Of a stretch of DNA of 64,000 bases, positions 6,513 through 62,907 are shown in pieces. The notes under the pieces were generated by a model. The model saw nothing but the letters and a program-made list of their open reading frames with translations, had not been told where the DNA came from and did not search any database. Source of the stretch: Candidatus Spongiihabitans sp. Its GTDB lineage: Bacteria; Pseudomonadota; Gammaproteobacteria; Arenicellales; Poriferihabitantaceae. Numbering within the stretch: position 1 is the stretch's first letter; each line of letters starts with the position of its first letter. The position numbers and the translations under genes are program-made. The stretch is from the NCBI GenBank assembly GCA_965206355.1, contig OZ242212.1:2096271-2160270 (forward strand). The letters run 5' to 3'.

Positions 6513-6651
6513 GAGACCTTTGCACGAAAGCCATTTCACCTGCATGCTGCGTTAAAATCGTACTCAATCGGTCATTTATAAGCATAAACTCCCTCATTCC
6601 GTGCGTTTTTGCCTTGCCTAAAAGCGAACTCATCTTCCGTGCAAAGGTCTC
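6513..6651 (-). mobile_element. MITE copy 1 (139 bp)
   Basis: Termini GAGACCTTTGCACG...CGTGCAAAGGTCTC. Sits between the convergent ispB and cysK stops; no clean TSD (flanks CAGTT / AGTGT). Confidence 0.85.
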
Positions 6652-6670
6652 AGTGTGTTTGTCTGCAAAA

Positions 6671-7582
6671 CTACACCCAAACATCGGTACTCAAATAACG
6701 CTCTCCAGTATCAGGCAGTATGGCAAGCAGAGACTTCTCTGCATATTCGCCACGCATCACCAGTTTGACCATTCCAGCGACCGCAGCACCGCAGGATATA
6801 CCGCCAAAAATGCCTTCTTTCTCTGCCAGCGTAATGGTCGTTGAATAGGCTTCCTCTGTGGTTATCGGGATTATCTCCTCATAGGCATTGGTATCTAAAA
6901 TATCGGGAATAAAACCGGGAGCGGTACCCATAATTTTATGTTTACAGGCAATACCCTGACTTAAAATCGGCGAATCCGCAGGTTCGGTGGCAATTATCTT
7001 GAGATACGGATGCCTGCCCCTAAGATATTTCGATAATCCTGATACCGTGCCACCCGTTCCAGTGGTACAGACAATAGCAGACAGAGATTTACCAAAATCA
7101 TCCCAAATTTCATCCGCCGTTTGCTTGTGCGACTTGGTGTTAGCCGGATTGTAATGCTGACCAACGAAAAAATAGCCATGCTTTGCCGCCAGCCGTTTCG
7201 CCTCTTCAATCGCCCCAACCGTCCCCTGCTCCGCTGGCGTAAGCACAACTTCCCCGCCGTAAGCCTTCAAGATGAGCTTGCGCTCCTCACTCATATCTTC
7301 TGCCATAACAAATATACTGCGATAGCCCTTAACTGCTGCGATCATCGCAAGACCAATTCCGGTATTACCCGATGTCGGTTCAATAATAATATCCCCAGAT
7401 TTTAATTTACCCTCAATTTCGGCATCTTCAATCATTTGCAACGCTGGACGATCTTTGATTGAGCCGCCCGGGTTAAAACTTTCCAGTTTCACCCATAATT
7501 CTGCGCCACTATCTGTCGCAAAATGGCTTAATTGCACAATCGGGGTCGCACCGATTGTTTCGAGGATATTCTGGTATTTCAT
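6671..7582 (-). CDS. cysK: cysteine synthase (O-acetylserine sulfhydrylase)
   Basis: PLP-fold motifs NPGGSIKDR, TSGNTGIGLA, GTGGT. Start taken at MKYQNILETIGATPIV (7582) rather than the upstream ATG at 7654. Confidence 0.85.
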   Translation of the reverse strand: MKYQNILETIGATPIVQLSHFATDSGAELWVKLESFNPGGSIKDRPALQMIEDAEIEGKLKSGDIIIEPTSGNTGIGLAMIAAVKGYRSIFVMAEDMSEERKLILKAYGGEVVLTPAEQGTVGAIEEAKRLAAKHGYFFVGQHYNPANTKSHKQTADEIWDDFGKSLSAIVCTTGTGGTVSGLSKYLRGRHPYLKIIATEPADSPILSQGIACKHKIMGTAPGFIPDILDTNAYEEIIPITTEEAYSTTITLAEKEGIFGGISCGAAVAGMVKLVMRGEYAEKSLLAILPDTGERYLSTDVWV

Positions 7583-7918
7583 AATGGATTCCCACAAGTC
7601 TAAACGAAAAACAAGATTATCATACCCTATGTATGAGTCCACCACATATTGCACTTCATTTCCTCATCGTCATAGTGCAATATGTTTCTGAACATATACA
7701 TTATTTATCCGGATTCAGTAGCGATGGGATAAACTAATGTGCTTTCACCAAGTTTTGCCCAAATCTTGAGCACACTCAAATGGTGTCGCCAATGGCTTGA
7801 TATGGATGATGACCCGATAGCAAAAGGGTCGTACAATCGGGCTATGCCGTACCGTTTGAATGAGCCGCATTGGTTATGCGAGTATGTACTTAACCGTTAT
7901 TAACAGGAAATAAAAAAG

Positions 7919-8479
7919 TTGCTGTCCCAAATCCCCAATCTGTTGACGCTGACCCGAATCGCGGCTTGTCCGATATTGGTGGTGGTGTTGAGCGAGCAAC
8001 GCTATTTGCTGGCTTTGCTGTTGTTTCTGGTCGCGGGCATTACCGATGGACTGGACGGCTATATTGCCAAGCGATTTAACTGTGTTTCAAAATTCGGAGC
8101 AGTGCTCGATCCGGTTGCGGATAAATTGCTCATCGCCAGCACCTACATCATGCTGGCAACACTGGGCGATATTCCATTTTGGTTGCTGGTTGTGGTGATG
8201 TTCCGCGATCTGGTGATTGTTATCGGTTATTTTATATTTGTGATCATGGCGGTTGATCTCCCCATGCGACCGATTTATAGCAGCAAAATTAACACATTTA
8301 CGCAAATTTCGCTGATGGTCGTGGTATTGCTGGAGAAGGCAACCTTATTACATATTCCAATGATTGTTGAACTATTAATATCCGGTGTATTGATTACGAC
8401 GGTTGTTAGCGGGCTTCAATACGTCTGGTTGTGGGGCATTCGTCAGGAGTTTGATAGTGCTGGTGGTTCTGAAAAATGA
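7919..8479 (+). CDS. pgsA: CDP-alcohol phosphatidyltransferase (PgsA-like)
   Basis: DGLDGYIAKRF...LDPVADK CDP-alcohol transferase motif; multi-TM; TTG start. Confidence 0.8.
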   Translation: MLSQIPNLLTLTRIAACPILVVVLSEQRYLLALLLFLVAGITDGLDGYIAKRFNCVSKFGAVLDPVADKLLIASTYIMLATLGDIPFWLLVVVMFRDLVIVIGYFIFVIMAVDLPMRPIYSSKINTFTQISLMVVVLLEKATLLHIPMIVELLISGVLITTVVSGLQYVWLWGIRQEFDSAGGSEK

Positions 8480-9186
8480 ATCAACAAACCATTATTCCCA
8501 TTGCTATTGAAGACGATACTAGTTTAGAGAGCTTTTACAGCATGCGCAACCAGCCTTTAATAGTGCAATTAAAGAGCCTGCTTGTCGGCACACGCGCCAA
8601 GCGGGTATTGTATCTTTGGGGGGAAAGTGGCAGTGGCAAAACCCACCTGCTTGATGCTTTTTGTGCGGCGGCGGGAAAGTCGGGTATGAAAAATGTGTAT
8701 ATCTCTCTCAAGCAAGATGGTGGGCGACTTGAGGAACTGAGTGCGCTCAATGGAGATACTGTGGTTTGTCTTGATGACCTGCAACAAATTGTTGACTGCG
8801 AATTTGGACAAAAGCAAATTTTTTCACTGTACGAAAAAATTATGCCCGCCAAAGGGGCGATTGTGGTCAGTGGAAGCCGCCCGTTGAACACCATAGGTAT
8901 GACGTTAAAGGATCTTGAATCCCGCCTATCCAGCGGCGGCACCTTCAATCTTTATGCGTTGAATGATGATGAAAAGCGAATCGCATTAAAGTTACGAGCA
9001 AGCCGGCGTGGCTTCACGCTGGATGACAACGTACTCTGGTTCATTATGTCGCATTACCAACGAGATACCAAATCCTTGTTTGCATTACTGGACAAACTGG
9101 ACAGCGCCTCTTTACAGAGGCACCGAAAAATTACCATTCCTTTTGTTAAAACATTGATAGCACATCGCCATAGCTGGCACTCATAG
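8476..9186 (+). CDS. hda: DnaA regulatory inactivator Hda
   Basis: AAA+ Walker A LWGESGSGKTHLL, about 235 aa, DnaA-related; ATGA overlap with pgsA. Confidence 0.8.
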   Translation: MNQQTIIPIAIEDDTSLESFYSMRNQPLIVQLKSLLVGTRAKRVLYLWGESGSGKTHLLDAFCAAAGKSGMKNVYISLKQDGGRLEELSALNGDTVVCLDDLQQIVDCEFGQKQIFSLYEKIMPAKGAIVVSGSRPLNTIGMTLKDLESRLSSGGTFNLYALNDDEKRIALKLRASRRGFTLDDNVLWFIMSHYQRDTKSLFALLDKLDSASLQRHRKITIPFVKTLIAHRHSWHS

Positions 9187-9783: not shown

Positions 9784-9838
9784 ATTGTAAATATTATGAG
9801 GTTACAGGCTACACAACAAATGCCCATAAACGTATGAA

Positions 9839-10015
9839 ATGCTTTAGCGGTTCAGCAACAAGAATTCCATCAATGCCTTTAAGATGCTTTAGCGGCTTAA
9901 CAACAAAAATCCCATCAATGCCTTTAAGATGCTTTAGCGGCTTAACAACAAAAATCCCATCAATGCCTTTAAGATGCTTTAGCGGTTCAGCAACAAGAAT
10001 TCCATCAATGCCTTT
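9839..10015. repeat. 45-bp tandem repeat x4 duplicating the argF 3-prime end
   Basis: Units start at 9839, 9884, 9929 and 9974. Pattern is A-B-B-A, with 5 differences between the A and B variants. The last unit is the genuine argF end. Confidence 0.95.
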
Positions 10016-11048: not shown

Positions 11049-11431
11049 TCAGGCAACCGCGCGGACAACAATGGCTCCCTTGAGACCAGTCACCAGACCT
11101 TCCACCCCAGCCATACGTTGGTTCAAACCGTGCTGGGCTTCACGTAAAGCATGAATTTCTTCTTTTAATTCGATACGCAGGTTCCGGATATTCTCTTTTA
11201 ACTCAATGAGACCTTTGCACGAAAGCCATTTCACCTCCATGCTGTGTTAAAATCGTACTCAATCGGTCATTTATAAGCATAAACTCCCTCATTGCGTGCG
11301 TTTTTGCCTTGCCTGAAAGCGAAATCATCTTCCGTGCAAAGGTCTCCAATACGCAAATCCTGCACTTCAACACGCACATCCTTAATCTCACTACGCATTT
11401 CCCGTATTTCTCCTCGCAACTCCAGCCGCAC
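11049..11431 (-). pseudogene. small coiled-coil ORF interrupted by MITE copy 2
   Basis: Removing 11208-11346 plus one CAAT joins ...EIREMRSEIKDVRVEVQDLRI to ELKENIRNLRIELKEEIHALREAQ...VVRAVA* in frame. Putative GTG start at 11431. Confidence 0.45.
11208..11346 (-). mobile_element. MITE copy 2 (139 bp)
   Basis: Canonical termini; flanked by CAAT/CAAT. Confidence 0.9.
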
Positions 11432-11649: not shown

Positions 11650-13218
11650 TTAGTCATACACCACTCTGAAGCCGATGCTGTTGGAGCGGTGATTGAGGGG
11701 AACCGGTCGCCCGAATATACTGCGGGCAGTAGTTTTTCCCGGCAACAGCCAGTTGCCACCCTGCACCCAGGCGGCGTAATCACCTTGTTCGGCGGTGATA
11801 GAGCGCGTCCATTCCGAGACATTACCCGCCAAATCATAGACCCCGCTGGCACTACGGTCGTGTCCCATAGTAGCGCATTGGCGTACTCCAGGCTCTGTTT
11901 GATCGCCGGTGGCAGCATGGTCTTTGACATAAACATCGCCCCAGGGGTAGGAATAGGCATCCGCACCGGCTGCCAACAGTTGCCATTCCTCAACTTCGGG
12001 CAAGCGTCCACCGGCCCAGCGGGCGAATGCATCTGCTGCCCACCAGTTGATTCCGCTCACCGGTAATTGCGGTTGTTGCAATTGCTGTTGCCAGTTTTGT
12101 GGGGTGTAGTCTTGCCAGCGTGGTTCGTGTTCATTGGCAAACAGACCGAGACGTACCAACGGGTGCCGTAAAAATGAGCGATATTCACTGCGGCTGACTT
12201 CACAACGGCTCACTTCCACACGCCACACTCCCTGTTTTTGACGAATGAGATTGCGTGCTTTGCGTTGCTGTGCTACGGGCAATAACAGCGCAACCCGAGC
12301 CAGTCGTAAATCTGCCGGCACACCGAGCGCATAATCGCCGCCAGCAATCTCTACCGTTTTCGGCATCGCTCCCCACGGCAGAGTCGCTGCTGGTGGCTGT
12401 GAATAGACACAACGAAAACCCAGATGGTGGCTACGTGTTTGTGGCTTGATATTTAGCCAGCCAGCAGACAGTGCATACAAGGCGCGTCCGTGTGACCGCA
12501 CTGCCGGAGCACCATGCGCTCCTGTCTGTCGTCGTAGAGAATGTGTGTCGCGCTGACCGCGACTCCATTCCATGACATTAGCGGCTAAATCGTGTACCCC
12601 TTGCGGCGTTGCTGTTGCTGGATGCAGCGCACACGATTGTGCCGCATTGCGGTGGGCACTTTGATAGGGCCAAGGGCTGTCATCAAAGCTATCGCCCCAC
12701 GGATATAAACGCCCCTCAACGCCAACTGCCATCGCTTCCCACTCCTCCGCCCAAGGCAGGCGACCACCCGCCGCTTCGCAATAGGCAGCGGCAGCGTGGT
12801 AGTTCACTCCGCTCGCTGGCGACTCCAGCAATCCGGCAATCCGATGACCGCTGGATGAACTGTACAATGCCGCCGCATCGGCTATGTTATTCTGCTCGCG
12901 CTGTCGCCAGCGTGCGAAGCGTTCAAAGTCAAGCTGTCGCACCTCGCAGCTATCTGCCCGAAACGAATCAATATGTGTCGTATAGGGCGGTCGATGCAGA
13001 CGTTGCCGCAACTCACTACTGAAATGCCCGCGCTCCAGAGCCTCAAGCAGAAACCGGTCAAATGCCTGCGCACGGCGACTATGCGATGTCGCAAAACCGA
13101 GTTCCACGGCGACGCTGTTGTCGCGCAATCCGCGCACACTGAATTGAGTCAGCAATAACAGCAACAGCAACAACACAGCAAGCGCAAATACGGTAATACG
13201 ATATTGTTTCCGCTTCAT
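11650..13218 (-). CDS. exported protein with two FGE-sulfatase (SUMF1-like) domains
   Basis: N-terminal hydrophobic signal/anchor (poly-Leu). Two repeats of the pattern RLP..EEWE...YPWGD...V(H/Y)DLAGNV.EW(S/T)R...GFR(C/V)VY. Confidence 0.8.
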   Translation of the reverse strand: MKRKQYRITVFALAVLLLLLLLLTQFSVRGLRDNSVAVELGFATSHSRRAQAFDRFLLEALERGHFSSELRQRLHRPPYTTHIDSFRADSCEVRQLDFERFARWRQREQNNIADAAALYSSSSGHRIAGLLESPASGVNYHAAAAYCEAAGGRLPWAEEWEAMAVGVEGRLYPWGDSFDDSPWPYQSAHRNAAQSCALHPATATPQGVHDLAANVMEWSRGQRDTHSLRRQTGAHGAPAVRSHGRALYALSAGWLNIKPQTRSHHLGFRCVYSQPPAATLPWGAMPKTVEIAGGDYALGVPADLRLARVALLLPVAQQRKARNLIRQKQGVWRVEVSRCEVSRSEYRSFLRHPLVRLGLFANEHEPRWQDYTPQNWQQQLQQPQLPVSGINWWAADAFARWAGGRLPEVEEWQLLAAGADAYSYPWGDVYVKDHAATGDQTEPGVRQCATMGHDRSASGVYDLAGNVSEWTRSITAEQGDYAAWVQGGNWLLPGKTTARSIFGRPVPLNHRSNSIGFRVVYD

Positions 13219-14966
13219 TACTGTTGCTCGGTGCTAGAAGATTGCCTCGTGCTGACACGTCGTACCAGCAATAAGCAAGCAAGCAGACAGAGCGCCAGCA
13301 TGGCATACAAGGTAACCAGCCAAGCCCGTGTCCCGAACAGTGGCTGACGATGTGCTGTCAATAGCGGGCGACCGTTCAGGCTTGCCCGATTATCCTCAGC
13401 CTGCACCAGCAAACGCCCGTCGGCAGCAACGGCGGCGTAAACAAAACCGATGATGAAATCATCAAACTTAGGGGCTATGTATGCCACTGCCCGCCACCGC
13501 AACTGCTCGGGATGCTGCTGTTGTAATGGCATCAGCAACATCGAATGCCATTCGAGGGGCAAGGCAAGCCCCCGCCAAACATCGGGATAGCTATTCAATC
13601 GCAGCACTGGAGCTGCCGCTTCCGGCAATGTCTGGGCATCGTCTCGCGCCCTCCCCACAGCAACCTGTTGCAAGCGTTTATTCGGTTCAATAATCAGTGC
13701 TGTGTTCGCCTGCTCGCTCAATTCCAACGTGCTGATTTCAAGCTGGCGATCGTGCTGGTCGGCAGAATATGGCTGGATTGCCGTGTTCAGGTCAGGCACA
13801 GGATCTTGTGCCAGATTTTGAAAAACATCCCAGATCAGCGTACTAATCAGTGTCCGTGTTGCTTCATCAAGCCGTGGCAGTGTGGCGAATGCACGACCGA
13901 GAGACTGCTCAAAACTAACCAGATAGTTACTCGGTGATGCCCCCGCATCCAGTATTGCCTGCAACTTGCCGATAAAATCAAACAATACCGTCAACACCTG
14001 TTCTATGCTGGGATCGGGATTGCTCAAACCGAGCGATCGTTCACTATTCGGGCGCAACGATTCCGGAGAGGAAAGCCGAAAACGCAGACCCTTATTTGCT
14101 GTTGTGCCGAGCGACTGCTGAGACGATGACAAGCTACGTCCGGGACGGGCATTAGGAAAACTGGCAGCCAAGCCATCATTATCACCTAAGTTGCCGTCTG
14201 CAAACGAGCTAAAACCTGTTCCGCCCGGCAACGGTCCAAGGGTAGCCGCGCCCGGAAACGGGTTGGAGTCTGTTGCCACCTGCTCATCTGCACCGCTAGC
14301 AAACTCCGCTGGTGGCCAGGTCGCCTCACCATCGCCACCACCTTGCGCCAGAGTCGGCAGGGTCGGTGTTGTTGTCGCACCTGTCCCGCCCGTACCACAA
14401 TCCTGAGCGGCAACGCCGGCTGGGCAATGACCTACCTGATCCAGCCCCAGCCCACCAGAGAGAAAATGCCAATGGCGCACCGAGATACCATGATCGCGTA
14501 AAATTGACATCACCAGATAGAATTGAGCAATGTCATATACGTCAGCGCGCAGGCGTAATTTGCGCTCCTCGTCAAAACCAGTCAGCCAGTCATCCATCGT
14601 ATTCGGCTTGCGCAACAACTGTTCACGGCTCCAAATTGTGCCACTGTAAAACTCGCGCACGAAACCACGATGGAATTCAAGAATCGGCAATATCTGGGGA
14701 TCATACTGCTGATCAAGGGGTGATGCGCGGTAATCGTGCAACCGTGCTGGTGGGCTGGCTGCCAGACTGTTCAGCACCAGCGACGTGCTGAAGCGGCGAC
14801 TCATCATCGTTTCCACTTCCTCCACCTGCGAGGCGGTACGTTGTTCACGTTCGCCACGCGCAGAAATGCTGAGGACGATAACGATAATCAGCATCGCCAG
14901 ACCGTTAGCGAGGATATCCACCAACGCCGTGCCCGCGAAATCAGGCATTTTCATCCCCCGTGTCAT
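13218..14966 (-). CDS. 582-aa envelope protein with ExbD/TolR-like Asp-containing N-terminal TM segment
   Basis: FAGTALVDILANGLAMLIIVIVL anchor, central Gly/Thr/Pro low-complexity linker, second hydrophobic segment at the C-terminus. Start overlaps the upstream stop (14963-14966); stop overlaps the downstream start (13218). Confidence 0.65.
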   Translation of the reverse strand: MTRGMKMPDFAGTALVDILANGLAMLIIVIVLSISARGEREQRTASQVEEVETMMSRRFSTSLVLNSLAASPPARLHDYRASPLDQQYDPQILPILEFHRGFVREFYSGTIWSREQLLRKPNTMDDWLTGFDEERKLRLRADVYDIAQFYLVMSILRDHGISVRHWHFLSGGLGLDQVGHCPAGVAAQDCGTGGTGATTTPTLPTLAQGGGDGEATWPPAEFASGADEQVATDSNPFPGAATLGPLPGGTGFSSFADGNLGDNDGLAASFPNARPGRSLSSSQQSLGTTANKGLRFRLSSPESLRPNSERSLGLSNPDPSIEQVLTVLFDFIGKLQAILDAGASPSNYLVSFEQSLGRAFATLPRLDEATRTLISTLIWDVFQNLAQDPVPDLNTAIQPYSADQHDRQLEISTLELSEQANTALIIEPNKRLQQVAVGRARDDAQTLPEAAAPVLRLNSYPDVWRGLALPLEWHSMLLMPLQQQHPEQLRWRAVAYIAPKFDDFIIGFVYAAVAADGRLLVQAEDNRASLNGRPLLTAHRQPLFGTRAWLVTLYAMLALCLLACLLLVRRVSTRQSSSTEQQ

Positions 14967-15514
14967 GGTGTTTCCCCGGTGTAATCGCGGATGTAGTCGG
15001 GGATGTCGTTTAATGACACCGACTTGAGCAACTCGTTATCGGCGATGACCCAACCGATGGCTAACACCTGTTGAGGCCATAATCGACGTAAACACTCGCG
15101 TGCCCGCGCCATAGTCGGCACACTGCCTTCCAGCATAAAAAACACCAATTGGTTGCCATTATCCTCATAAACACGACGGGCATAATCAACAAAAGCACTG
15201 CCCGCCACACATATCTCAGTCGGGTTGATGCTGACACCGGTTTCAATAATACGCAACTCGTCAGGAAAGGTGATTACCACATAACCGCTGCCACCATCAA
15301 GGCGTTCAATACGGTGCAGACCTTCTTCACTACCACGTTCCAGACGTTCGCGTTGTGCCGCATCGGAATATAAATTGACCACCACCAGAAACACCAACAG
15401 CAAGCCGAATACACCACCGAAAATGGCCATCATTGGCGTGTTATTCTCTTCTTGCAGAGCATCCCCAGAAGCACGTCCAGACACGCTGCGTCCGGGCAGG
15501 ATACGTCTAGGCAT
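14963..15514 (-). CDS. 183-aa single-pass membrane protein (no family recognised)
   Basis: One TM (MMAIFGGVFGLLLVFLVVVNLY) followed by a soluble domain; lies between the MotA/ExbB-like gene and the 582-aa gene. Confidence 0.6.
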   Translation of the reverse strand: MPRRILPGRSVSGRASGDALQEENNTPMMAIFGGVFGLLLVFLVVVNLYSDAAQRERLERGSEEGLHRIERLDGGSGYVVITFPDELRIIETGVSINPTEICVAGSAFVDYARRVYEDNGNQLVFFMLEGSVPTMARARECLRRLWPQQVLAIGWVIADNELLKSVSLNDIPDYIRDYTGETP

Positions 15515-15554
15515 CGGGTTTAAGCATCAGGTTGAGGCATATCGGCTCTGGGCA

Positions 15555-16619
15555 TCAGCCCTGGGCATTTGGCGAGGTCTCTCGCAAACGCCGTTCAAGC
15601 GTGGCGAGCAAGCGTTCTTCGCTACGTTGTACCAGTGCCAACACCAGCATCAGCACCACACTCAGCGACAAGGCAACCAAGGTGGTATCAAAGGCGATAC
15701 CAAGCGGGGCGATGGCCGCATCCAGATCACTCGACAAACTGGCGAGACCAGCATCTGAGGCAATGATGCGGCGGATGCCGTCAGCCGCCAGCGAAATACC
15801 GAGTACAGTGCCGATAAAACCTAAAATAGGGACTGCCCAACTGATATAGCGCGGGATCAACCACGACTCCTCGTGACGACGCCACAGCAGTTGTAGCGAC
15901 ATCTCAATATCGGCAGTTTTTTCGCTCAGCGTATCCAAACTGGCAGAGAAGGGCGAGACCCGCGTATGTCGTTTACTGCGCCAGCCTGCCAGCACCCGCC
16001 GTAAATACCAACCATTCCATGCCTTACCAAACAACAGTAACATCGCCCAGAAAAACAGCAACATGGTCAGTGGTGGAATCACACCGCGTTCCAGAAAACG
16101 CCGTGTCAGTGCTTGCATATCAGCGCCGCTACGCGCCAGTAGCTCCATACCGAGAATCGTGCCCGCACACAAAATCAATGCGGTAATTAGCGATGACAAT
16201 ATGCCCGGACCGTAGAGCAAACGGGCAAGACGCTCAAGACTTTGTTGATGTTCGCCGGAATCCACAGTAACGATCCACAGGTTACAGGCATGCAGTGCGA
16301 GCACGGCGACAAACATCGGCATCATACGCCCAACCCAGGAACTGCTGGCGCCAGAGGCAATGACCTGCCAGGCAGGCACTGCCAGCACCAGTGCCACTGC
16401 CACCAAACCAATGCTACTGAGCACCAGCAAACAGCTGAACAAGGCATGACGACTGCCACAGAATAACTGCGTAGCGATCAGCGCCACGAGTGCAAGCACG
16501 GACGGTATCCCTGCCAGCCACAGCGGCAATTCCAGCACCAATGCCAGATTGATGGCGACCAGTACCAACAGGATGAAATAAAAAAGCAACGACAAACGGC
16601 TAGGCCAGTACACAGTCAT
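15555..16619 (-). CDS. MotA/TolQ/ExbB-type proton-channel family protein with extended N-terminal membrane domain
   Basis: C-terminal PILGFIGTVLGISLAA...APLGIAFDTTLVALSLSVVLMLV matches the MotA_ExbB channel signature; about 6 additional N-terminal TM segments. Confidence 0.75.
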   Translation of the reverse strand: MTVYWPSRLSLLFYFILLVLVAINLALVLELPLWLAGIPSVLALVALIATQLFCGSRHALFSCLLVLSSIGLVAVALVLAVPAWQVIASGASSSWVGRMMPMFVAVLALHACNLWIVTVDSGEHQQSLERLARLLYGPGILSSLITALILCAGTILGMELLARSGADMQALTRRFLERGVIPPLTMLLFFWAMLLLFGKAWNGWYLRRVLAGWRSKRHTRVSPFSASLDTLSEKTADIEMSLQLLWRRHEESWLIPRYISWAVPILGFIGTVLGISLAADGIRRIIASDAGLASLSSDLDAAIAPLGIAFDTTLVALSLSVVLMLVLALVQRSEERLLATLERRLRETSPNAQG

Positions 16620-16931
16620 GAGTAATCTCGAAGTGTTGATATGAATTTATGGACAAGGCAGATTATGCCATTGATGGCAATCAATGCCAAAAGTACACGC
16701 TATCTGCTATGCGCTATGAGCTTCACAGACACTGCTAGCAGAGGTGCCAGCACAATATCCCACACCGCCGCTGACAACAAGCAACGCTTGCACCGACTGA
16801 ATTTTACCTTGTTATGCCGATTAGGGGATACCCTGTTTTAAGGATATATTTTAAGAAACTTCGTGTTCGGCTTGCAATGACGACGTAATTGAGAAAATGA
16901 GGGGTGGGTATGAAGGGCGGCATACAAACCA

Positions 16932-19652
16932 CTAAAAACGCCGTTCAAAAGCAACACGCAGGAACGGACGGGTGGGATTTGCGCTGTGGTGTTGCCGATG
17001 GCGTTCCATGCCGATACGGGTTTCCAGTGTGCCTCCAGCGATGGGCAAATGATATATGGCTTCGACATCCAGCGCACGACCGCTTGGTGCCAAATTAACC
17101 GTATGGTTTTTATAGACAACTTCACGATATTTTGTGCGCCCGACTGGCACACGCAACTTCGCATGACCACGTTCCGCACGCAGTGGTTGCGACAGGCGCA
17201 GACTCAGCCAGTCATCGTGTCGCCATATTGAAGCACGCGTAGCAGCCATGCTGAACGCGCTACTGACGATAGTACTTGCCTCGTGCAATAAAGCAACGTC
17301 AAGGTCGTCAATCTGCGGTCGTGTGCGCCCGAGGTATGCCGATGTCAGCAAACGCCAGTTATCATTTCCCGCCAGTGTCCATGCACCGTTGATGCCCGCA
17401 AATGTGGTCGCCGCATTGGCTTTACCGAATACACCTTTCGGTCGTACACCAAGAAAACCATCGCCCTCGCGCACCGCACCCGCCTGCAACGACAACCCGT
17501 TGCCCCGCAAACGCGCACTGTCCGTGGTAATGCTCAGCAAGACACCAAAACCACGTTCGCCACCTGCTTTTTGCTGATTATCAAACTGTGGTGCGCCGTG
17601 CATCAGTGCAAAGCCAAAACGTTTATGACTGCCACTCGCCCCACTCACCAAGGAGCGCGACCAGCCCACCGTCGGCCCATCACGTACCAAAGACAAATAT
17701 GGTGCAATGAATGCCAACGAGTTATCAACATAAGCGGCTGTGCTTCGGCCCAATCTACCCGACTCTTGCACCGTCTGTCCCGTAGAGGAGCTTACCGAGC
17801 TTGCCGATAAGGGGGGAGATAAACGCGGGTCAAATGACCCGTTATACCATGCAGGCAACGCGCCGCCATGCTGTCCGTAGGAAAACCACCAGCCGTCTGC
17901 AAAAGCAAGCCGTGCATCGCTTATCGCACCACTACTATCTACCGTCAGCGACAAATTTATGTGGTCGCTCATAGTGCTATCAATCTGGCGGAATTGCGCA
18001 TAATTTTGCACGTCTTGTTTATCGAACGATAGCGACAGTTTACGCACACCACGCTCAACGCTTATTTCCTGCGTTGGGCGTACCCAGCTCGCCGCGGATT
18101 GAAAAAATGGCGCACCGAGCGCATCAAAACCAGCAATTTCCATATCCGCCAACGCCTCTGGCAAGGACGCGCCAAACGCCCCGCCGGACAAGGAGATACC
18201 ACTACCGGCAAAGACACGGCTATTGGGGTCGCCGGGCAGGCCGGTCATCATCACGCCGACCGGTGCGGTGGCGGCATCGAGATCCACGAGGCCGTGGCCG
18301 TAGATGTTGGAGTTGGCGTAGATGCTTTCCCGGTTGGCAGTGGCGAGCAGGCGGTCGACTAATTCGTGGTTGCCGAGTTGTCGGCGAAAGTATTGGCGCA
18401 GCAGGGCGAGAGAGCCGCTGACCAGTGGCGCGGCGAAAGAGGTGCCGCCGCCAGCACTACGATATCCGCTGTCATCAATGCTGGAAGCGGCCACAAGGTC
18501 ACTGCCCGGTGCCGCGAAGCAGAACGCCTTGGCGATGCCGCAGTGGTTTGAGTAACTGGCAATCGTGCCGTCCTGGTCCAACGCCACCACAGCGAGGACG
18601 TGGCTTTGCAATTCCGGAAAATACGCACCCATGCCGGCGAATACGTTTGGCGAGTCCTTCCGTGCCGGGCTGCCGTTTGGCAAGCGTTGGCTACCGTTGT
18701 TACCGGCTGACATTACGATGATGGTCTTGTCTGCAGGGGCGACGCCAGCCTGCGCAAGCGTAGCGGCAGAACGCGAAAGTTGGCGTCGCACGGCGGTGCG
18801 GTCGTAGCTTGAAATCACGCCCGACACGCCGAAACTGAAGTTCAACACCGAGGCATCGTTGGCAACGGCGTCGGCGATGAAACCACCAAACCATTGCGGC
18901 CCGGCATAAAACTCGTCGTTCAAGTTGCTTAAGGCGGCCGGCCTATATATTCCGTCTGAGGTGCCCAACCGGATTTCTTTGACATGCAGGGTGGCGTCAA
19001 ACGCCACGCCGTGCATCCCCCGTCCGTCTCTACGCCCGACAGCCAACGCAGAGACCGCCGTGCCGTGGAATTTTTCCGCATCGGTCGGCATATAACCGCT
19101 GTCGGTCGTTTTGGTGACGGTTTTGCCGATGAACTCGTTGTGCGTGTCGCGGATGCCGGTGTCCACCACCATCAATTTTTGCCCGGTACCAGTGGCGCCG
19201 CGCGCGTAGGCAGCCGCAGCGTTAATTCTGGCCAGGTGCGTGTCGGTGCCAAATCCCGAGGGATAAGGGGCATTGTATTCCGAGTTTTCAAAAGAGCGCT
19301 GGCGGGCGGCAAAACCAGCATCGTCGGGGGTGTTGAGCACCGTGGCGGTCGGCGCGGAGCGAGGGGAGGACAGTAGTATAGGTGGCGCGGGTTTCGTGCT
19401 GCCGCCACCACCGCCGCAAGCGGTCAGCAGGAACAGAGTTAGTGCGCCCAGTAGAACAAGTTTAGCTTCGCCAGATACTCTATGTCGGGGGGGGATAGTT
19501 GCAAATCGAACATTGTCAAACCTTGTGGAAATTGCGATTGTAGCAGGTAATACGGTATTTTTTATTGCTTCTTCCCCATTGGTTATTTGACATGGAAAGA
19601 GTGTAATATGCTTGTTCCTGCGCTTCTCAAAGCAACGGCTCAACCAGCGCAT
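16932..19652 (-). CDS. subtilisin-family (S8) serine protease, lipoprotein autotransporter
   Basis: Triad motifs VVDTGI (Asp), HGTAVS (His), GGTSFAAPLVSG (Ser); lipobox LLTAC; C-terminal beta-barrel-like region ending RVAFERRF. The annotated start overlaps tlpA. The better SD-ATG at 19513 is out of frame with the G8 tract as sequenced. Confidence 0.85.
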   Translation of the reverse strand: MRWLSRCFEKRRNKHITLFPCQITNGEEAIKNTVLPATIAISTRFDNVRFATIPPRHRVSGEAKLVLLGALTLFLLTACGGGGGSTKPAPPILLSSPRSAPTATVLNTPDDAGFAARQRSFENSEYNAPYPSGFGTDTHLARINAAAAYARGATGTGQKLMVVDTGIRDTHNEFIGKTVTKTTDSGYMPTDAEKFHGTAVSALAVGRRDGRGMHGVAFDATLHVKEIRLGTSDGIYRPAALSNLNDEFYAGPQWFGGFIADAVANDASVLNFSFGVSGVISSYDRTAVRRQLSRSAATLAQAGVAPADKTIIVMSAGNNGSQRLPNGSPARKDSPNVFAGMGAYFPELQSHVLAVVALDQDGTIASYSNHCGIAKAFCFAAPGSDLVAASSIDDSGYRSAGGGTSFAAPLVSGSLALLRQYFRRQLGNHELVDRLLATANRESIYANSNIYGHGLVDLDAATAPVGVMMTGLPGDPNSRVFAGSGISLSGGAFGASLPEALADMEIAGFDALGAPFFQSAASWVRPTQEISVERGVRKLSLSFDKQDVQNYAQFRQIDSTMSDHINLSLTVDSSGAISDARLAFADGWWFSYGQHGGALPAWYNGSFDPRLSPPLSASSVSSSTGQTVQESGRLGRSTAAYVDNSLAFIAPYLSLVRDGPTVGWSRSLVSGASGSHKRFGFALMHGAPQFDNQQKAGGERGFGVLLSITTDSARLRGNGLSLQAGAVREGDGFLGVRPKGVFGKANAATTFAGINGAWTLAGNDNWRLLTSAYLGRTRPQIDDLDVALLHEASTIVSSAFSMAATRASIWRHDDWLSLRLSQPLRAERGHAKLRVPVGRTKYREVVYKNHTVNLAPSGRALDVEAIYHLPIAGGTLETRIGMERHRQHHSANPTRPFLRVAFERRF
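19487..19494. repeat. homopolymeric G8 (C8 on coding strand) tract in the 5-prime region of the S8 autotransporter
   Basis: Eight consecutive G counted at 19487-19494, translated as IPPR in the current frame. Confidence 0.95.
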
Positions 19653-20139
19653 TTAATTCCTGCTCCGAGATAATACCCAGTTTTGTTTGCACCAGTGTGC
19701 CGTTACGGTCAAAAATAGCCGTAAACGGTAATGCGCCCGCCAGCTTATTGCCGTGGCTGGCGAGTAACGCGGCGGCATCAGCAACAACCCATAAGGAGGG
19801 ATAGGTGATACCAACTTCATCACCAAACTGGCGTGTCGCTGTCAGCACATCATGCGCTATCCCTACCACCTGCACGCCTTTGGCTTGCATGGTTTGCTGG
19901 TATGCTATGAGCATCGGTATTTCTTTCCGACAGGGCGCACACCAGCTCGCCCAATGATTGACCACCACCACCTTGCCTAGCCATTCCTCGCCTTTTCTTA
20001 GCTTTTTGTTGACATCGGGTAATTGCAGTTCCTGCAAAGTGGATTGGGAACGCTCTGAAGCAAACTGTTGTATGCTGAAATAACCGCCTATAAGGGCGCT
20101 TATCAGAGCAAGCAGGGCAATGGATACAAGTTTTTTCAT
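19627..20139 (-). CDS. periplasmic thiol:disulfide oxidoreductase, TlpA/ResA/DsbE family
   Basis: Signal anchor plus thioredoxin motif WASWCAPCRKE. Confidence 0.85.
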   Translation of the reverse strand: MKKLVSIALLALISALIGGYFSIQQFASERSQSTLQELQLPDVNKKLRKGEEWLGKVVVVNHWASWCAPCRKEIPMLIAYQQTMQAKGVQVVGIAHDVLTATRQFGDEVGITYPSLWVVADAAALLASHGNKLAGALPFTAIFDRNGTLVQTKLGIISEQELNALVEPLL

Positions 20140-20150: not shown

Positions 20151-20289
20151 GAGACCTTTGCACGGAAGATGATTTCGCTTTCAGGCAAGGCAAAAACGCA
20201 CGGAATGAGGGAGTTTATGCTTATAAATGACCGATTGAGTACGATTTTAACGCAGCATGCAGGTGAAATGGCTTTCGTGCAAAGGTCTC
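20151..20289 (+). mobile_element. MITE copy 3 (139 bp)
   Basis: Canonical termini; 5-bp TSD TCATT on both sides; left end is 11 nt upstream of the tlpA ATG. Confidence 0.95.
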
Positions 20290-20732: not shown

Positions 20733-20871
20733 GAGACCTTTGCACGGAAGATGATTTCGCTTTCAGGCAAGGCAAAAACGCACGGAATGAGGGAGTTTAT
20801 GCTTATAAATGACCGATTGAGTACGATTTTAACGCAGTATGCAGGTGAAATGGCTTTCGTGCAAAGGTCTC
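20733..20871 (+). mobile_element. MITE copy 4 (139 bp)
   Basis: Canonical termini; 5-bp TSD TTAAC. Confidence 0.95.
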
Positions 20872-24132: not shown

Positions 24133-24271
24133 GAGACCTTTGTACGAAAGCCATTTCACCTGCATACTGCGTTAAAATCGTACTCAATCGGTCATTTATA
24201 AGCATAAACTCCCTCATTGCGTGCGTTTTTGCCTGGCCTGAAAGCGAAATCATCTTCCGTACAAAGGTCTC
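24133..24271 (-). mobile_element. MITE copy 5 (139 bp)
   Basis: Canonical termini (one T substitution). Flanks CATTAT / ATAATG extend the inverted repeat instead of forming a direct TSD; 10 bp from the tRNA-Pro 3-prime end. Confidence 0.9.
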
Positions 24272-32772: not shown

Positions 32773-33198
32773 GGTTTAGCGCCTTACCCACAGGGCACAA
32801 ACACCTCCGCAAATCCCTCTATATGCCCGCGTTGATGGCAGTGCGGTACAATCCATTGATGCAGAATTTATACAATGAGACCTTTGCATGAAAGCCATTT
32901 TACCTGCATGCTGTGTCGCCTAAAAGCACCTACTGTTGGTAAAAATCGTACTCAATCGGTCATTTATAAGCATAAACTCCCTCATTCCGTGCGTTTTTGC
33001 CTTGCCTAAAAGCGAAATCATCTTCCGTGCAAAGGTCTCTAGTTATATCCTATGGGATATTGACCTATGGGGTATTGAAATCACAACAACCTTTTGATGT
33101 CAATTATGCGTGCAGATAGAGCGATTGCAGCGCAGGCTACAATTTTGCTTGCGAAGGCTATCCTGAATGCCCCATTCCTTATAGTCATCACGCCCTAT
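32773..33198 (+). pseudogene. IS110-family transposase C-terminal remnant (frameshifted, split by MITE copy 6)
   Basis: GLAPYPQ then, in another frame, HLRKSLYMPALMAVRYNPLMQNLYN, cut by the MITE at 32877. After the MITE comes a weak RAIAAQATILLAKAILNA tail; resembles the conserved IS110 C-terminus. Confidence 0.45.
32877..33039 (-). mobile_element. MITE copy 6 (163-bp long variant)
   Basis: Canonical termini plus about 23-bp internal insertion; no TSD (flanks ACAAT / TAGTT). Confidence 0.9.
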
Positions 33199-33337
33199 GA
33201 GACCTTTGCACGAAAGCCATTTCACCTGCATGCTGCGTTAAAATCGTACTCAATCGGTCACTTATAAGCATAAACTCCCTCATTCCGTGCGTTTTTGCCT
33301 TGCCTAAAAGCGAAATCATCTTCCGTGCAAAGGTCTC
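33199..33337 (-). mobile_element. MITE copy 7 (139 bp)
   Basis: Canonical termini; 5-bp TSD CCTAT. Confidence 0.95.
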
Positions 33338-49295: not shown

Positions 49296-49434
49296 GAGAC
49301 CTTTGCACGGAAGATGATTTTGCTTTCAGGTAAGGCAAAAACGCACGGAATGAGGGAGTTTATGCTTATAAATGACCGATTGAGTACGTTTTTAACGTAG
49401 CATGCAGGTGAAATGGCTTTCGTGCAAAGGTCTC
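49296..49434 (+). mobile_element. MITE copy 8 (139 bp)
   Basis: Canonical termini; 5-bp TSD TCATA. Confidence 0.95.
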
Positions 49435-49631: not shown

Positions 49632-50107
49632 TTATTCTTTGAGGCCTTTGCACGGAAGATGATTTCGCTTTTAGGCAAGGCAAAAACGCACGGAATGAGG
49701 GAGTTTATGCTTATAAATGACCGATTGAGTACGATTTTAACGCAGCATGCAGGTGAAATGGCTTTCGTGCAAAGCTCTCTCTTTAATTCTGAAAGTTCCA
49801 TCGTGTTGTTCTTCAATATTCAGATAATTGAAAAATGATTCATCAGTAAACTCTGAATGGGTATCAAAATATTTTGTATGTATTGGTAATGCTTCAATGT
49901 CTGATCGAAGCGCTTTGTGGGTTTCAAATATTGACTTGAATAGCCAGTTAATCACCTTGCTGTTCAGTATCTGACTAAGTTGCCTTACACTAATCGGAAA
50001 ATCATCTTCCAATATCAGCATATTGGCACTGTTCAAGAAAAACATCTGCTCGGTATCATGGTAGAAAACCAAGTCTGATGAAATAAATCTATAAACCAAT
50101 TTTTCTT
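49632..50107 (-). pseudogene. C-terminal fragment of an N6-adenine DNA methyltransferase (TaqI_C-like target-recognition region)
   Basis: KLVYRFISSDLVFYHDTEQMFFLNSANMLIL...LSQILNSKVINWLFKS...LRSDIEALPI. The 5-prime side abuts the IS1595 left end at 50108; MITE copy 9 is inserted 1 codon before the original TAA (49632-49634). Confidence 0.65.
49641..49779 (+). mobile_element. MITE copy 9 (139 bp, variant termini GAGGCC/GCTCTC)
   Basis: 5-bp TSD TCTTT. Confidence 0.93.
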
Positions 50108-50825
50108 GGGGCTGTCCTAGATAACACTGAAAGAGTGCTATCATGGGATCAATGAGAAAGAGTCGTTTAAGCCGTTATAAACAAGGTCGTCTTATCGAGC
50201 ATTTTGTGTCGGGTTCAACCGCCCGCACGGCAGCGTTGCTGGTTGGGATCAACAAGTCCACATCGGCGTATTTTTATCACCGGTTGCGCGAGATTATCGC
50301 ATATGAGCTTGAACAAGAAAGTCATGAGGTTTTTGACGGGGAGATTGAAGTCGATGAAAGTTATTTTGGCGGTGGTCGCAAAGGCAAACGAGGTCGGGGA
50401 GCGGCGGGGAAAATCCCGGTGTTTGGCTTACTCAAACGGGGCGGGAGGGTTTACACCAAGATTATCCCGGATGCCTGTTCAGCAACCTTGATGCCAATTA
50501 TTGAGCGTAAAGTGGTTCCGGACAGCATCGTTTATTCCGACTGTTGGAGCGGTTATAATGTGCTGGACGTGAGCGATTTCAAGCACCACCGCATCAACCA
50601 TTCCCAACGCTTCGCGGAGCAGGGGAATCACATCAACGGCATTGAGAACTTTTGGAGTCAGGCGAAGCGTCATATGCACAAATTCAACGGTGTTCCCAAG
50701 GCGCATTTTGGGCTGTTTTTGAAGGAGTGCGAGTGGCGTTTTAACAACAGCGACCCAATATCTCAATTATTTCAATTAAAACAATGGGTTGGAGTTCATT
50801 TAAACTAGTTATCTAGGACAGCCCC
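50108..50825 (+). mobile_element. IS1595-family insertion sequence, copy 1 (718 bp)
   Basis: 18-bp terminal inverted repeats GGGGCTGTCCTAGATAAC / GTTATCTAGGACAGCCCC enclosing a single 221-aa transposase ORF. Confidence 0.9.
50143..50808 (+). CDS. IS1595-family (IS1016-like) transposase
   Basis: 221 aa; ...VDESYFGG..KGKRGRGAAGKIPVFGLL.RGG.VYT..I...YSD.W.GY......H..INH pattern typical of ISXO2/IS1016-group DDE transposases. Confidence 0.85.
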   Translation: MGSMRKSRLSRYKQGRLIEHFVSGSTARTAALLVGINKSTSAYFYHRLREIIAYELEQESHEVFDGEIEVDESYFGGGRKGKRGRGAAGKIPVFGLLKRGGRVYTKIIPDACSATLMPIIERKVVPDSIVYSDCWSGYNVLDVSDFKHHRINHSQRFAEQGNHINGIENFWSQAKRHMHKFNGVPKAHFGLFLKECEWRFNNSDPISQLFQLKQWVGVHLN

Positions 50826-50863: not shown

Positions 50864-51025
50864 GAGACCTTTGCACGGAAGATGATTTCGCTTTCAGGCA
50901 AGGCAAAAACGCACGGAATGAGGGAGTTTATGCTTATAAATGACCGATTGAGACCAATTTTACCAACAGTAGGCGCTTTTAGGCGACGCAGCATGCAGGT
51001 GAAATGGCTTTCGTGCAAAGCTCTC
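50864..51025 (+). mobile_element. MITE copy 10 (162-bp long variant)
   Basis: 5-bp TSD ATTAA; right terminus variant GCTCTC. Confidence 0.95.
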
Positions 51026-52673: not shown

Positions 52674-52812
52674 GAGACCTTTGCACGGAAGATGGTTTCG
52701 CTTTCAGGCAAGGCAAAAACGCACGGAATGAGGGAGTTTATGCTTATAAATGACCGATTGAGTACGTTTTTAACACAGCATGCAGGTGAAACGGCTTTCG
52801 TGCAAAGGTCTC
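52674..52812 (+). mobile_element. MITE copy 11 (139 bp)
   Basis: 5-bp TSD TAGAT; the left TSD copy contains the stop codon of the preceding gene. Confidence 0.95.
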
Positions 52813-55786: not shown

Positions 55787-55859
55787 GCGGCAACTATAAA
55801 CGGAGTCAGTTTGGGTTAGTAGCTACCACTAAAGCAGATATGTACACATAAGGTTAAAA

Positions 55860-56874: not shown

Positions 56875-57592
56875 GGGGCTGTCCTAGATAACTAGTTTAA
56901 ATGAACTCCAACCCATTGTTTTAATTGAAATAATTGAGATATTGGGTCGCTGTTGTTAAAACGCCACTCGCACTCCTTCAAAAACAGCCCAAAATGCGCC
57001 TTGGGAACACCGTTGAATTTGTGCATATGACGCTTCGCCTGACTCCAAAAGTTCTCAATGCCGTTGATGTGATTCCCCTGCTCCGCGAAGCGTTGGGAAT
57101 GGTTGATGCGGTGGTGCTTGAAATCGCTCACGTCCAGCACATTATAACCGCTCCAACAGTCGGAATAAACGATGCTGTCCGGAACCACTTTACGCTCAAT
57201 AATTGGCATCAAGGTTGCTGAACAGGCATCCGGGATAATCTTGGTGTAAACCCTCCCGCCCCGTTTGAGTAAGCCAAACACCGGGATTTTCCCCGCCGCT
57301 CCCCGACCTCGTTTGCCTTTGCGACCACCGCCAAAATAACTTTCATCGACTTCAATCTCCCCGTCAAAAACCTCATGGCTTTCTTGTTCAAGCTCATATG
57401 CGATAATCTCGCGCAACCGGTGATAAAAATACGCCGATGTGGACTTGTTGATCCCAACCAGCAACGCTGCCGTGCGGGCGGTTGAACCCGACACAAAATG
57501 CTCGATAAGACGACCTTGTTTATAACGGCTTAAACGACTCTTTCTCATTGATCCCATGATAGCACTCTTTCAGTGTTATCTAGGACAGCCCC
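56875..57592 (-). mobile_element. IS1595-family insertion sequence, copy 2 (718 bp, inverted relative to copy 1)
   Basis: Same 18-bp TIRs; transposase protein identical to copy 1 (one synonymous difference, AGT vs AGC). Confidence 0.9.
56892..57557 (-). CDS. IS1595-family transposase
   Basis: 221 aa, identical to the 50143..50808 product. Confidence 0.85.
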   Translation of the reverse strand: MGSMRKSRLSRYKQGRLIEHFVSGSTARTAALLVGINKSTSAYFYHRLREIIAYELEQESHEVFDGEIEVDESYFGGGRKGKRGRGAAGKIPVFGLLKRGGRVYTKIIPDACSATLMPIIERKVVPDSIVYSDCWSGYNVLDVSDFKHHRINHSQRFAEQGNHINGIENFWSQAKRHMHKFNGVPKAHFGLFLKECEWRFNNSDPISQLFQLKQWVGVHLN

Positions 57593-60082: not shown

Positions 60083-60118
60083 TATAATTTAAGCATAATT
60101 TCAAGCTGTAAGCTATTC
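60083..60118. repeat. 36-bp direct repeat, copy 1
   Basis: TATAATTTAAGCATAATTTCAAGCTGTAAGCTATTC. Confidence 0.9.
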
Positions 60119-60161
60119 TGCATAATCACCAAACCATTTAGATCATCGCTCAAATTCACAA

Positions 60162-60197
60162 TATAATTTAAGCATAATTCCAAGCTGTGAGCTATCC
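60162..60197. repeat. 36-bp direct repeat, copy 2
   Basis: TATAATTTAAGCATAATTCCAAGCTGTGAGCTATCC; 33/36 identical to copy 1; ends 22 nt before ATG 60220. Confidence 0.9.
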
Positions 60198-60219
60198 CGA
60201 ACATTGTTATTACTGAGCC

Positions 60220-61590: not shown

Positions 61591-61676
61591 TTGAAACTGA
61601 CTGTTTGTAGCGACCAAGCGACTGCACTAAACCAGCAACCCTATCTGAACGCGACTCGACCATCCCGACAAAATAA

Positions 61677-62597
61677 ATGTCAACAAGCAAGACCGCGCCG
61701 GTTGAAAACAAAACGATTCAGGAGATTGATGGTGTCAATCATATTTTTTTTGATGGTTACTGGATTCGTTATTATGAGCCCCCTAAAGAATCTCTCTCTG
61801 AAAAAAAGAAACTGCTGGACGCGCTAACCCGCAGAACTTTCCATCATACCGAATCCGGCATTAACACACCCGGGGAAAAGTTAGATGAAGTGCGGGCTGC
61901 CTATGAAAACGAAAACGACCCGGCACGCAAGCGCGTCAATGCGGCCATGCTCGCTGGCGCACTGTTTAATCGTGCCACCGATATATTCACTGCCATTGTT
62001 GACTTAGAAACAAGGGGTGTCAAAATGACTAATGATGATGAGGTGATGTGTCAATGCTCAAACTGTTTTGCTGAGGCCCTATCATTGTCTAACAATGTCA
62101 AACATCATAGTGGGGAAGAAGGCGTGGACGAGCTTTGGGGGGAACCGGGCAAGGTGTTCACCATGTCCATCGCCGATTACTATTGCAGTCGCTATCGAAA
62201 AATCGCTCAGGCGATGCGTGAAATTGATCATATTGGAGAGACCATTCAATCAACACTGTGTTACCTGCCATGGTTTGCGAAGGCACAACCATTGATAGAA
62301 GACTTTATCAGCATTGCCAAATATGAATGTGAAATCCTCCGTAGCGATCCAAACTACCTCAATGTATGGCCAGAATTTGTCGCTGATGGTGAGAAAATTC
62401 TCACCTTCCTTGCCACCATTCCAGAAACCGCAAACAGCGATCTGGAAAGACACATCAAACGCGGCACCATCTTGTTGCGCTCAGGAAAAGAGTTAATCGC
62501 CTGGATTGCCAATGTCCGCGTGCCCATGCCCGCGAGTAAAAAACGCTACTTGAAAAAATGCGCCGACTACCAAGACGCAACTAAGCAAATCATATAA
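61677..62597 (+). CDS. hypothetical protein (306 aa, soluble, Cys-containing)
   Basis: Long ORF with ordinary amino-acid composition; no family recognised. Confidence 0.55.
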   Translation: MSTSKTAPVENKTIQEIDGVNHIFFDGYWIRYYEPPKESLSEKKKLLDALTRRTFHHTESGINTPGEKLDEVRAAYENENDPARKRVNAAMLAGALFNRATDIFTAIVDLETRGVKMTNDDEVMCQCSNCFAEALSLSNNVKHHSGEEGVDELWGEPGKVFTMSIADYYCSRYRKIAQAMREIDHIGETIQSTLCYLPWFAKAQPLIEDFISIAKYECEILRSDPNYLNVWPEFVADGEKILTFLATIPETANSDLERHIKRGTILLRSGKELIAWIANVRVPMPASKKRYLKKCADYQDATKQII

Positions 62598-62745
62598 CTC
62601 CGCTATCACCCAAACACCGTTGCAGAACATTCCCGCATAGCTCAACGGATATCCTCGTGATTTATACGTTACACCCGCCACGCTACACCAAACTTCCTGT
62701 CAAAGTGGTTGTGTCATTGAGAAAAGACACTTTATCAATAGTATA

Positions 62746-62907
62746 GAGACCTTTGCACGGAAGATGATTTCGCTTTTAGGCCGGGCAAAAACGCACGGAA
62801 TGAGGGAGTTTATGCTTGTAAATGACCGAGTGAGACCATTTTTACCAACAGTAGGCGCTTTTAGGCGACGTAGCATGCAGGTGAAATGGCTTTCGTGCAA
62901 AGGTCTC
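62746..62907 (+). mobile_element. MITE copy 12 (162-bp long variant)
   Basis: Canonical termini; flanked by AGTATA/AGTATA; 41 nt upstream of ORF start 62949. Confidence 0.95.

Follow-up and report, generated by a model that had tools for sequence, protein, structure and literature searches.

In a stretch of 64,000 nucleotides from Candidatus Spongiihabitans sp. (contig OZ242212.1, positions 2,096,271 to 2,160,270; this whole stretch is called the window here), a short repeat that had been predicted from its sequence to be a transposable element of the miniature inverted-repeat type (MITE) is found twelve times. The 14-mer GAGACCTTTGCACG, which forms its terminal inverted repeat (TIR), matches the window 24 times with at most 2 mismatches (0.4 expected), and these 24 matches fall into 12 inward-facing pairs, each delimiting one copy. 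The copies, named below by their first position, align over their full length, co-linearly and in both orientations. In an alignment that includes 20 nt of flanking sequence, the homology breaks off sharply at the last base of the TIR on both sides, the flanks being unrelated. The following list gives for each copy its position, strand, size, target-site duplication (TSD) and surroundings.

6513..6651, minus strand: 139 bp; no TSD (CAGTT / AGTGT); between convergent ispB-like (polyprenyl synthetase) and PALP genes
11208..11346, minus strand: 139 bp; flush repeat of 4 bp (CAAT); flanked by the OTCase and FGE-sulfatase genes
20151..20289, plus strand: 139 bp, reference orientation; TSD TCATT; 11 nt upstream of the ATG of a minus-strand thioredoxin-fold gene (AhpC/TSA, TlpA-like)
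20733..20871, plus strand: 139 bp; TSD TTAAC; downstream of the dsbD stop
24133..24271, minus strand: 139 bp, the most diverged copy (96%); TSD ATTAT/ATAAT (one mismatch); 10 nt from the 3' end of tRNA-Pro(CGG)
32877..33039, minus strand: 163 bp, long subfamily with internal insertion; no TSD
33199..33337, minus strand: 139 bp; TSD CCTAT
49296..49434, plus strand: 139 bp; TSD TCATA; downstream of the TauE gene
49641..49779, plus strand: 139 bp; TSD TCTTT; one codon before the stop of a minus-strand TaqI_C-domain gene remnant
50864..51025, plus strand: 162 bp, long subfamily; TSD ATTAA; 38 nt past the right end of an IS1595-family element
52674..52812, plus strand: 139 bp; TSD TAGAT; exactly at the junction of a DAO-family oxidoreductase gene (its TAG stop) and an RluD-like pseudouridine synthase gene (its ATG)
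62746..62907, plus strand: 162 bp, long subfamily; TSD GTATA (AGTATA, 6 bp, with one chance base); upstream of the proline racemase gene

The 14-mer pairs, the alignment and BLAST bear out the number, positions and mixed orientations of the copies as originally predicted, and their summed length of 1,738 bp (2.7% of the window) agrees with the 1.7 kb estimated before. A sensitive BLAST search with both size forms as queries detected no extra or partial copies in the window, where the sole other repeat of at least 200 bp is an insertion sequence (IS) of 718 bp. Sizes of 139 and 162 bp had been proposed, which holds for 11 copies (nine of 139 bp, and 50864 and 62746 of 162 bp) and fails for 32877, which measures 163 bp. 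An internal insertion of about 23 bp had been noticed in these three longer copies; it spans 23-24 bp, occurs once in each of them, and is accompanied by linked substitutions, which together define a long subfamily.

The TIR is perfect or near-perfect over 14 bp and reaches 18 bp with one G/A difference, the termini reading GAGACCTTTGCACG(A/G)AAG. Perfect 14-bp repeats had been claimed for every copy; 18 of the 24 ends have them, and the other six carry one mismatch (both ends of 24133, both ends of 49641, the left end of 32877 and the right end of 50864). No open reading frame (ORF) is conserved within the copies, and no tandem repeat occurs inside any of them. The window copies are 94-99% identical to each other, which indicates a recent expansion of the family, apparently from at least two master copies, one of 139 bp and one of 162 bp.

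Target-site duplications and gene context

A flush 5-bp TSD is present in 8 of the 12 window copies (TCATT, TTAAC, CCTAT, TCATA, TCTTT, ATTAA, TAGAT and GTATA). The first seven of these had already been listed as copy-specific repeats, and all seven stand. The eighth had been taken for a repeat of 6 bp, one base of which is due to chance. Copy 11208 indeed has the 4-bp repeat that was ascribed to it, and of the three copies thought to have none, 24133 turns out to have 5 bp with one mismatch, so that 6513 and 32877 are the only copies without a TSD. In order to extend these counts, one genome per species (GTDB set) was scanned for GAGACCTTTGCACGRAAG, which yielded at least 94 loci in other genomes (these and further loci are numbered with an L below), none of them overlapping the window locus by 250 bp or more. 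When the window copies are pooled with the public loci listed, 93 end-paired elements result, and 57 of these 93 have a flush TSD of exactly 5 bp. The repeats are flush with the element ends in the strict sense, as the 5-bp peak is gone once the assumed boundaries are moved by 1 or 2 nt.

The reconstructed targets of 58 elements (window and loci L012-L105) show a Y at position -1 in 92%, followed by an AT-rich 5-mer and by an R at position +5 in 90%, and they sit in an AT-rich stretch of about 20 bp. The target is a weakly palindromic, AT-rich site, Y|WNWNW|R. For copy 52674 an orthologous empty site is available in the relative L115 (one site examined), whose DAO-family oxidoreductase is 77% identical to that of the window; between the window protein and its counterpart in Ca. 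Spongiihabitans the identity is 73%. In L115 the DAO and RluD-like genes abut, and their junction reads ...GATTATTTTTAGATGACAC..., with a single TAGAT. The window junction reads ...GATTATTTTTAGAT[139-bp element]TAGATGTCAC..., that is, TAGAT-MITE-TAGAT. As the orthologous empty site holds a single TAGAT, the insertion event is confirmed, and copy 52674 entered between the TAG stop and the adjoining ATG, duplicating TAGAT.

Because the element is short and non-coding, has TIRs and is bounded by copy-specific, flush 5-bp TSDs, the original interpretation as a MITE whose copies result from separate transpositions holds. It is smaller than 300 bp, its copies are dispersed, its TSD has a fixed length, an empty site is found, and an autonomous element with matching ends exists, as described below.

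All window copies are intergenic or hit a gene remnant at its very 3' end, and two of them are found between parC-like and rseP-like genes. The striking distances to gene boundaries that had been reported are all recovered: 7 nt from the ispB stop (6513), 11 nt before the tlpA-like ATG (20151), 10 nt from the 3' end of the tRNA, which is tRNA-Pro (24133), one codon before a stop (49641), and a TAG stop codon inside the TSD itself (52674). The preference for an AT-rich palindromic target, together with the loss of gene-disrupting insertions through purifying selection, adequately explains this clustering at gene boundaries.

The gene remnant beside copy 49641 is a TaqI_C-domain ORF (49737-50144, minus strand) which looks like the remainder of a restriction-modification gene, its 5' side being cut by an IS1595 copy. 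Copy 49641 parts the last codon of this ORF from its stop and extends the frame by 17 MITE-encoded codons (ERALHESHFTCMLR replacing E).

The probable mobilising transposase and the spread of the family

The original prediction left the mobilising enzyme without an identity, and the ends of the MITE can now be matched to a class of transposase. Two unpaired ends among the listed loci (L056 and L091, in MITE-bearing metagenome-assembled genomes, MAGs) are followed by a decayed coding sequence for the N-terminus of an IS5-type transposase, and a pattern built from these two remnants was used to find intact ISs in marine metagenomes. Three identical full-length ISs of 1223-1224 bp, with perfect GAGACCTTTGCACGA ends, are located on marine metagenome contigs:

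L106: 110-1332
L107: 1435-2658
L111: 1735-2957

Their transposase of 327 amino acids scores 275 bits on the NCBIfam model NF033581 'IS5 family transposase' (cut-off 140), contains the Pfam domains DUF772 and DDE_Tnp_1, and has homologues at 70-79% identity which form a large clade in a protein search. Four full-length genomic ISs whose ends agree with these over 14-15 nt have perfect 5-bp TSDs: L118 (ATATT), L119 (ACTTT) and L120 (CTATT), all from Ca. Endonucleobacter bathymodioli, and L121 (ATTGA) on a 1.77-Mb contig from ENA sample ERZ25069296. This sample also holds a contig encoding exactly the IS1595 transposase of the window, so a putative cognate IS co-occurs with that transposase in one sample. 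In total, the MITE ends are identical over 14-18 nt to those of seven full-length ISs (L106, L107, L111 and L118-L121) encoding NF033581 transposases, which answers the search for a full-length element with the same TIRs. The closest named relative of the transposase among plasmid records belongs to the ISAba23 family (53.5% identity), and the right inverted repeat (IR) of ISAba23 reads GAGACCTTTGCACGAAAC, which agrees in 17 of 18 positions with the MITE end GAGACCTTTGCACGAAAG. Very probably, then, the repeats are a non-coding MITE family moved by an ISAba23-like clade of IS5-family transposases, with which they agree in their ends and in the length of their TSD.

A few observations speak against this assignment. 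As predicted before, no transposase with matching ends is present in the 64-kb window, in which no IS5-type transposase was found, and the two window copies 6513 and 32877 lack a TSD. Local alignment with four of the full-length ISs shows that the homology with the MITE ends after the terminal 14-22 nt, so that the internal homology expected with a parent IS is missing; a search for a parent by internal similarity gave no candidate, with nothing shared beyond 22 nt. As only these termini are common, the MITE is not a simple internal-deletion derivative of the examined ISs, and it resembles a 'TIR-only' MITE. Also, the three marine metagenome ISs L106, L107 and L111 have no TSDs. Here, the right flank of L107 (ACAAT) equals the left flank of L111, and I put the missing duplications down to short reads having been assembled chimerically over a repeat of 1.2 kb, the contigs probably joining the flanks of different IS copies.

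Under the assignment to the ISAba23-like clade, the transposase would come in trans from a full-length IS, about 1.2 kb long, that lies in another part of the genome or was formerly present in it, and the MITE termini would be the binding and cleavage sites of this DDE transposase. The enzyme would excise or copy the MITE and insert it at Y|WNWNW|R sites, cutting the two strands with a stagger of 5 bp, the repair of which would leave the 5-bp TSDs, and insertions would survive chiefly in AT-rich intergenic gaps. From the shared ends and TSD length I infer that such a transposase mobilised these particular copies.

Two other origins have to be considered. A Tn3-family derivative, of the TIME type of MITE that has reportedly been described in one paper (PMC4133298), would fit the 5-bp TSD, since Tn3 transposases also make 5-bp duplications. 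However, Tn3-family ends are about 38 bp long and start with GGGG, unlike the MITE ends, which comprise 14-18 bp, start with GAGACC and are identical to those of IS5-family ISs making 5-bp TSDs. With no Tn3-type transposase beside any such end among the 94 loci listed, I regard this derivation as extremely improbable. Hardly more credible are REP/BIME-like units spread by a RAYT (IS200/IS605-like), or a structured RNA gene family, even though the repeats are palindromic, intergenic and of high copy number. The flush, copy-specific 5-bp TSDs and the TSD-bounded empty site are hallmarks of a DDE transposase with a staggered cut, the flanks are unrelated as far as the final TIR base, and the copies occur in both orientations irrespective of the neighbouring genes. 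A structured RNA gene family is also not what Rfam points to: at gathering score it recognises only tRNA-Pro in the window, and over two MITE copies nothing is found at E <= 1.

The MITE family is widespread in marine Gammaproteobacteria. Nearly all loci listed belong to marine gammaproteobacterial MAGs (Halieaceae, Cellvibrionaceae, Ca. Endobugula, Thiotrichaceae, Thiomicrorhabdus, Cocleimonas, Marinomonas and others), and the main size classes among the 93 pooled elements are 139/140, 159/160 and 162 bp. The dimorphism of 139 and 162 bp is also present in the Halieaceae MAG OZ242189.1 (loci L013, L016, L020, L026, L034, L051, L083, L086, L092, L094 and L095). The mean identities of the 139-bp copies are as follows, the last line referring to 139-141-nt copies in other genomes.

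Window versus OZ242189.1: 96.5%
Within the window: 96.4%
Within OZ242189.1: 97.3%
Window versus other genomes: about 84%

The genome of the window and OZ242189.1 differ in size and GC content, and among the best 120 matches (at least 75% identity) to the topoisomerase I of OZ242189.1 there is no close orthologue from the genome of the window; the two appear to belong to different lineages. An identity between these genomes that equals the identity within them suggests, given their apparently different lineages, a recent horizontal spread of the MITE family.

The elements of 159/160 nt (e.g. L054 2794-2952) form a second MITE family, more perfectly palindromic, with a minimum free energy (MFE) down to -90 kcal/mol, which dominates the MAGs of Thiotrichaceae and Thiomicrorhabdus. 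Its 18-nt ends and its 5-bp TSD are those of the 139-bp family, with an interior unrelated to that family, from which it appears that one transposase clade has several independent MITE partners. In the Halieaceae MAG, locus L016 (1045-1326) contains nested or abutting MITE ends, with starts at 1045 and 1123 and ends at 1261 and 1326, which suggests that one MITE was inserted into or beside another. The 18-mer TIR also has 11 matches in viral contigs, ten of them at one homologous position with identical flanks and one isolated. As none has an inverted partner end, I take these for chance matches.

The palindrome and a possible role for the host

An inverted symmetry of about 27 bp at either end had been proposed. 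Instead, the symmetry spans the whole element, which is an imperfect palindrome of about 70% identity to its own reverse complement. Folded with RNA parameters, the strand as at 20151(+) has an MFE of -56.1 kcal/mol (z = -7.1) and the opposite strand one of -40.6 kcal/mol (z = -5.1), so that the long hairpin that was envisaged is predicted to form in both orientations. In a set of 26 distinct copies of 139-141 nt from several genomes, 98.5% of the cells are paired, and changes on both sides are seen in 11 of 46 pairs, versus 3.7 after shuffling and 1-3 in controls that were slid. The whole-element palindrome is apparently kept by compensatory changes. In copy 24133 a complementary substitution is present in both TIRs (GAGACCTTTGTACG ... 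CGTACAAAGGTCTC); two separate substitutions are unlikely here (a few per cent, by a rough estimate), and the pair hints at an arm-to-arm conversion within the palindrome.

The better-folding strand was also considered as the site of a strand-specific structure at the RNA level. On the structure predicted by RNAalifold, G-U cells exceed A-C cells by 110:7, which is largely an artefact, because the structure was predicted on that very strand; with the arms paired without fold prediction the excess shrinks to about 2:1. As the better-folding strand also shows no preference for sense, this candidate was dropped.

It had been suggested that the hairpin acts as a terminator, an RNA-stability element or a promoter donor, and effects of this kind are reported for the Correia and ERIC elements. 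Recruitment or retention by the host as a functional hairpin, in which the stem-loop of about 139 nt, once transcribed together with its neighbours, would terminate transcription, stabilise the RNA or offer an RNase III site, or hinder translation, would account for the strong fold on both strands and for compensatory changes that retain the pairing across genomes. It would also suit the advantage of 10-20 kcal/mol that one strand has in the 139-nt and 159-nt families alike, and the position of copies at a distance of a few nt from stop and start codons and from the end of a tRNA; copy 52674 even splits a stop and a start that formerly abutted. However, there is no orientation bias with respect to co-directional flanking genes (the better-folding strand is sense 18 times and antisense 17 times, p = 1), no sigma-70-like promoter or stem-plus-T-tract terminator was found in the four copies scanned, and Rfam has no match. 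The element ends with GGTCTC followed by a variable TSD, which leaves it without a built-in U-tract, the wobble excess of about 2:1 after blind pairing stems from few positions inherited from the master copy, and arm-to-arm gene conversion in a DNA palindrome yields compensatory changes equally well. I therefore consider a role for the host unlikely, and the suggested functions do not find support here.

The palindrome is better seen as belonging to the element itself, which would retain it through conversion between the arms or through selection for the ability to transpose, than as evidence of a host function. Possible, though on balance doubtful, is a broader proposal, namely that the hairpin is actively maintained (by selection or arm-to-arm conversion) and that the element has perhaps spread horizontally, and very recently, among unrelated marine or host-associated Gammaproteobacteria.

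Neighbouring features and comparison with known systems

The window contains two copies of an IS1595-family element, each 718 bp long, with GGGGCTGTCCTAGATAAC ends and a transposase of 221 amino acids:

50108-50825, plus strand: IS1595-family element
56875-57592, minus strand: IS1595-family element

Their ends are unrelated to those of the MITE, as noted before, and an IS1595-derived MITE is ruled out. The two copies are 99.9% identical, inverted with respect to each other, and bracket the DAO/RluD segment. In the relatives L115 and L116 the gene order is SulP(+) - Gln-synt_C(-) - DAO(+) - RluD(+). In the window SulP(-) follows directly after the second IS1595 copy and a Gln-synt_C gene is missing, which suggests an IS-mediated inversion with gene loss around DAO/RluD. 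Elsewhere in the window, the ornithine/aspartate carbamoyltransferase ORF is overlapped at its 3' end by a 45-bp tandem repeat (9839-10015; 3.9 copies, 92% matches). The block 12001-20000, in which there are several long ORFs on the minus strand and a gene with an FGE-sulfatase domain, has a G+C content of 55%, versus 44-48% in the rest of the window, and may be acquired or compositionally distinct.

With a consensus, a 5-bp TSD, a Y|WNWNW|R target and a cognate IS clade at hand, it is possible to mask insertions of this family, to date them and to use them as markers of strains. This is relevant to annotation and assembly, as the family takes up about 2.7% of the window and recurs in many MAGs of marine Gammaproteobacteria. 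Insertions lie a few nt from stop and start codons, and one splits an abutting gene pair, so that single copies may alter the expression of their neighbours. The density of MITEs, the two IS1595 copies and the gene remnant are compatible with a genome in a phase of mobile-element expansion, as is known from host-restricted symbionts.

No published description of this MITE family was found in the literature on the TIR core, on MITEs of sponge and marine symbionts, or on IS5 MITEs with 5-bp TSDs, and the family seems undescribed so far. It is an ordinary, IS-derived kind of mobile DNA, here in an uncultured marine gammaproteobacterium, and it changes nothing in what is known of how MITEs work. 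The Correia elements of Neisseria (NEMIS) and the ERIC/IRU elements of enterobacteria are palindromic, intergenic MITEs of about 100-160 bp that give long hairpins when transcribed. The present family is likewise palindromic, of similar size and located between genes, with long and short size variants, but its TIRs are unrelated to theirs. Correia elements duplicate TA, not 5 bp, and their functional effects (RNase III processing, promoters) are documented, whereas such effects find no support in the family described here.

Ends of the GAGACCTTTGCA type are known as the IS5-family TIRs of ISPg1, ISPg4 and ISNme1 and of the MITEs BrickBuilt and MITEPgRS (Klein et al. 2015, PMC4596501, Table 2). 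BrickBuilt and MITEPgRS in Porphyromonas gingivalis, and the ATR MITE/ISNme1 in Neisseria meningitidis, have 12-nt ends that are GAGACCTTTGCA or one mismatch off, are intergenic and occur in tens of copies, as the MITE here does (PMC4596501). However, BrickBuilt contains a 23-nt tandem minisatellite with a long leader and tail, ranges from 84 to 991 nt and has inconsistent TSDs (PMC4596501), whereas the present element has no tandem repeat, a fixed size and a consistent 5-bp TSD, only the 12-nt TIR being common to both. Because it lacks the minisatellite, the MITE is not BrickBuilt, and the hosts differ as well, with BrickBuilt in Bacteroidota and the present family in marine Gammaproteobacteria.

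ISAba23 itself belongs to the IS5 family, is 1249 bp long, has IRs of 16 bp and duplicates 5 bp of its target (PMC4110982). From the members of its clade the MITE differs in its length of 139-163 bp, in being non-coding, and in sharing only the terminal 14-22 nt. It has in common with them the same terminal sequence and the 5-bp TSD, and the marine and symbiont members of the clade (L106 and L118-L121) are found at similar AT-rich sites.

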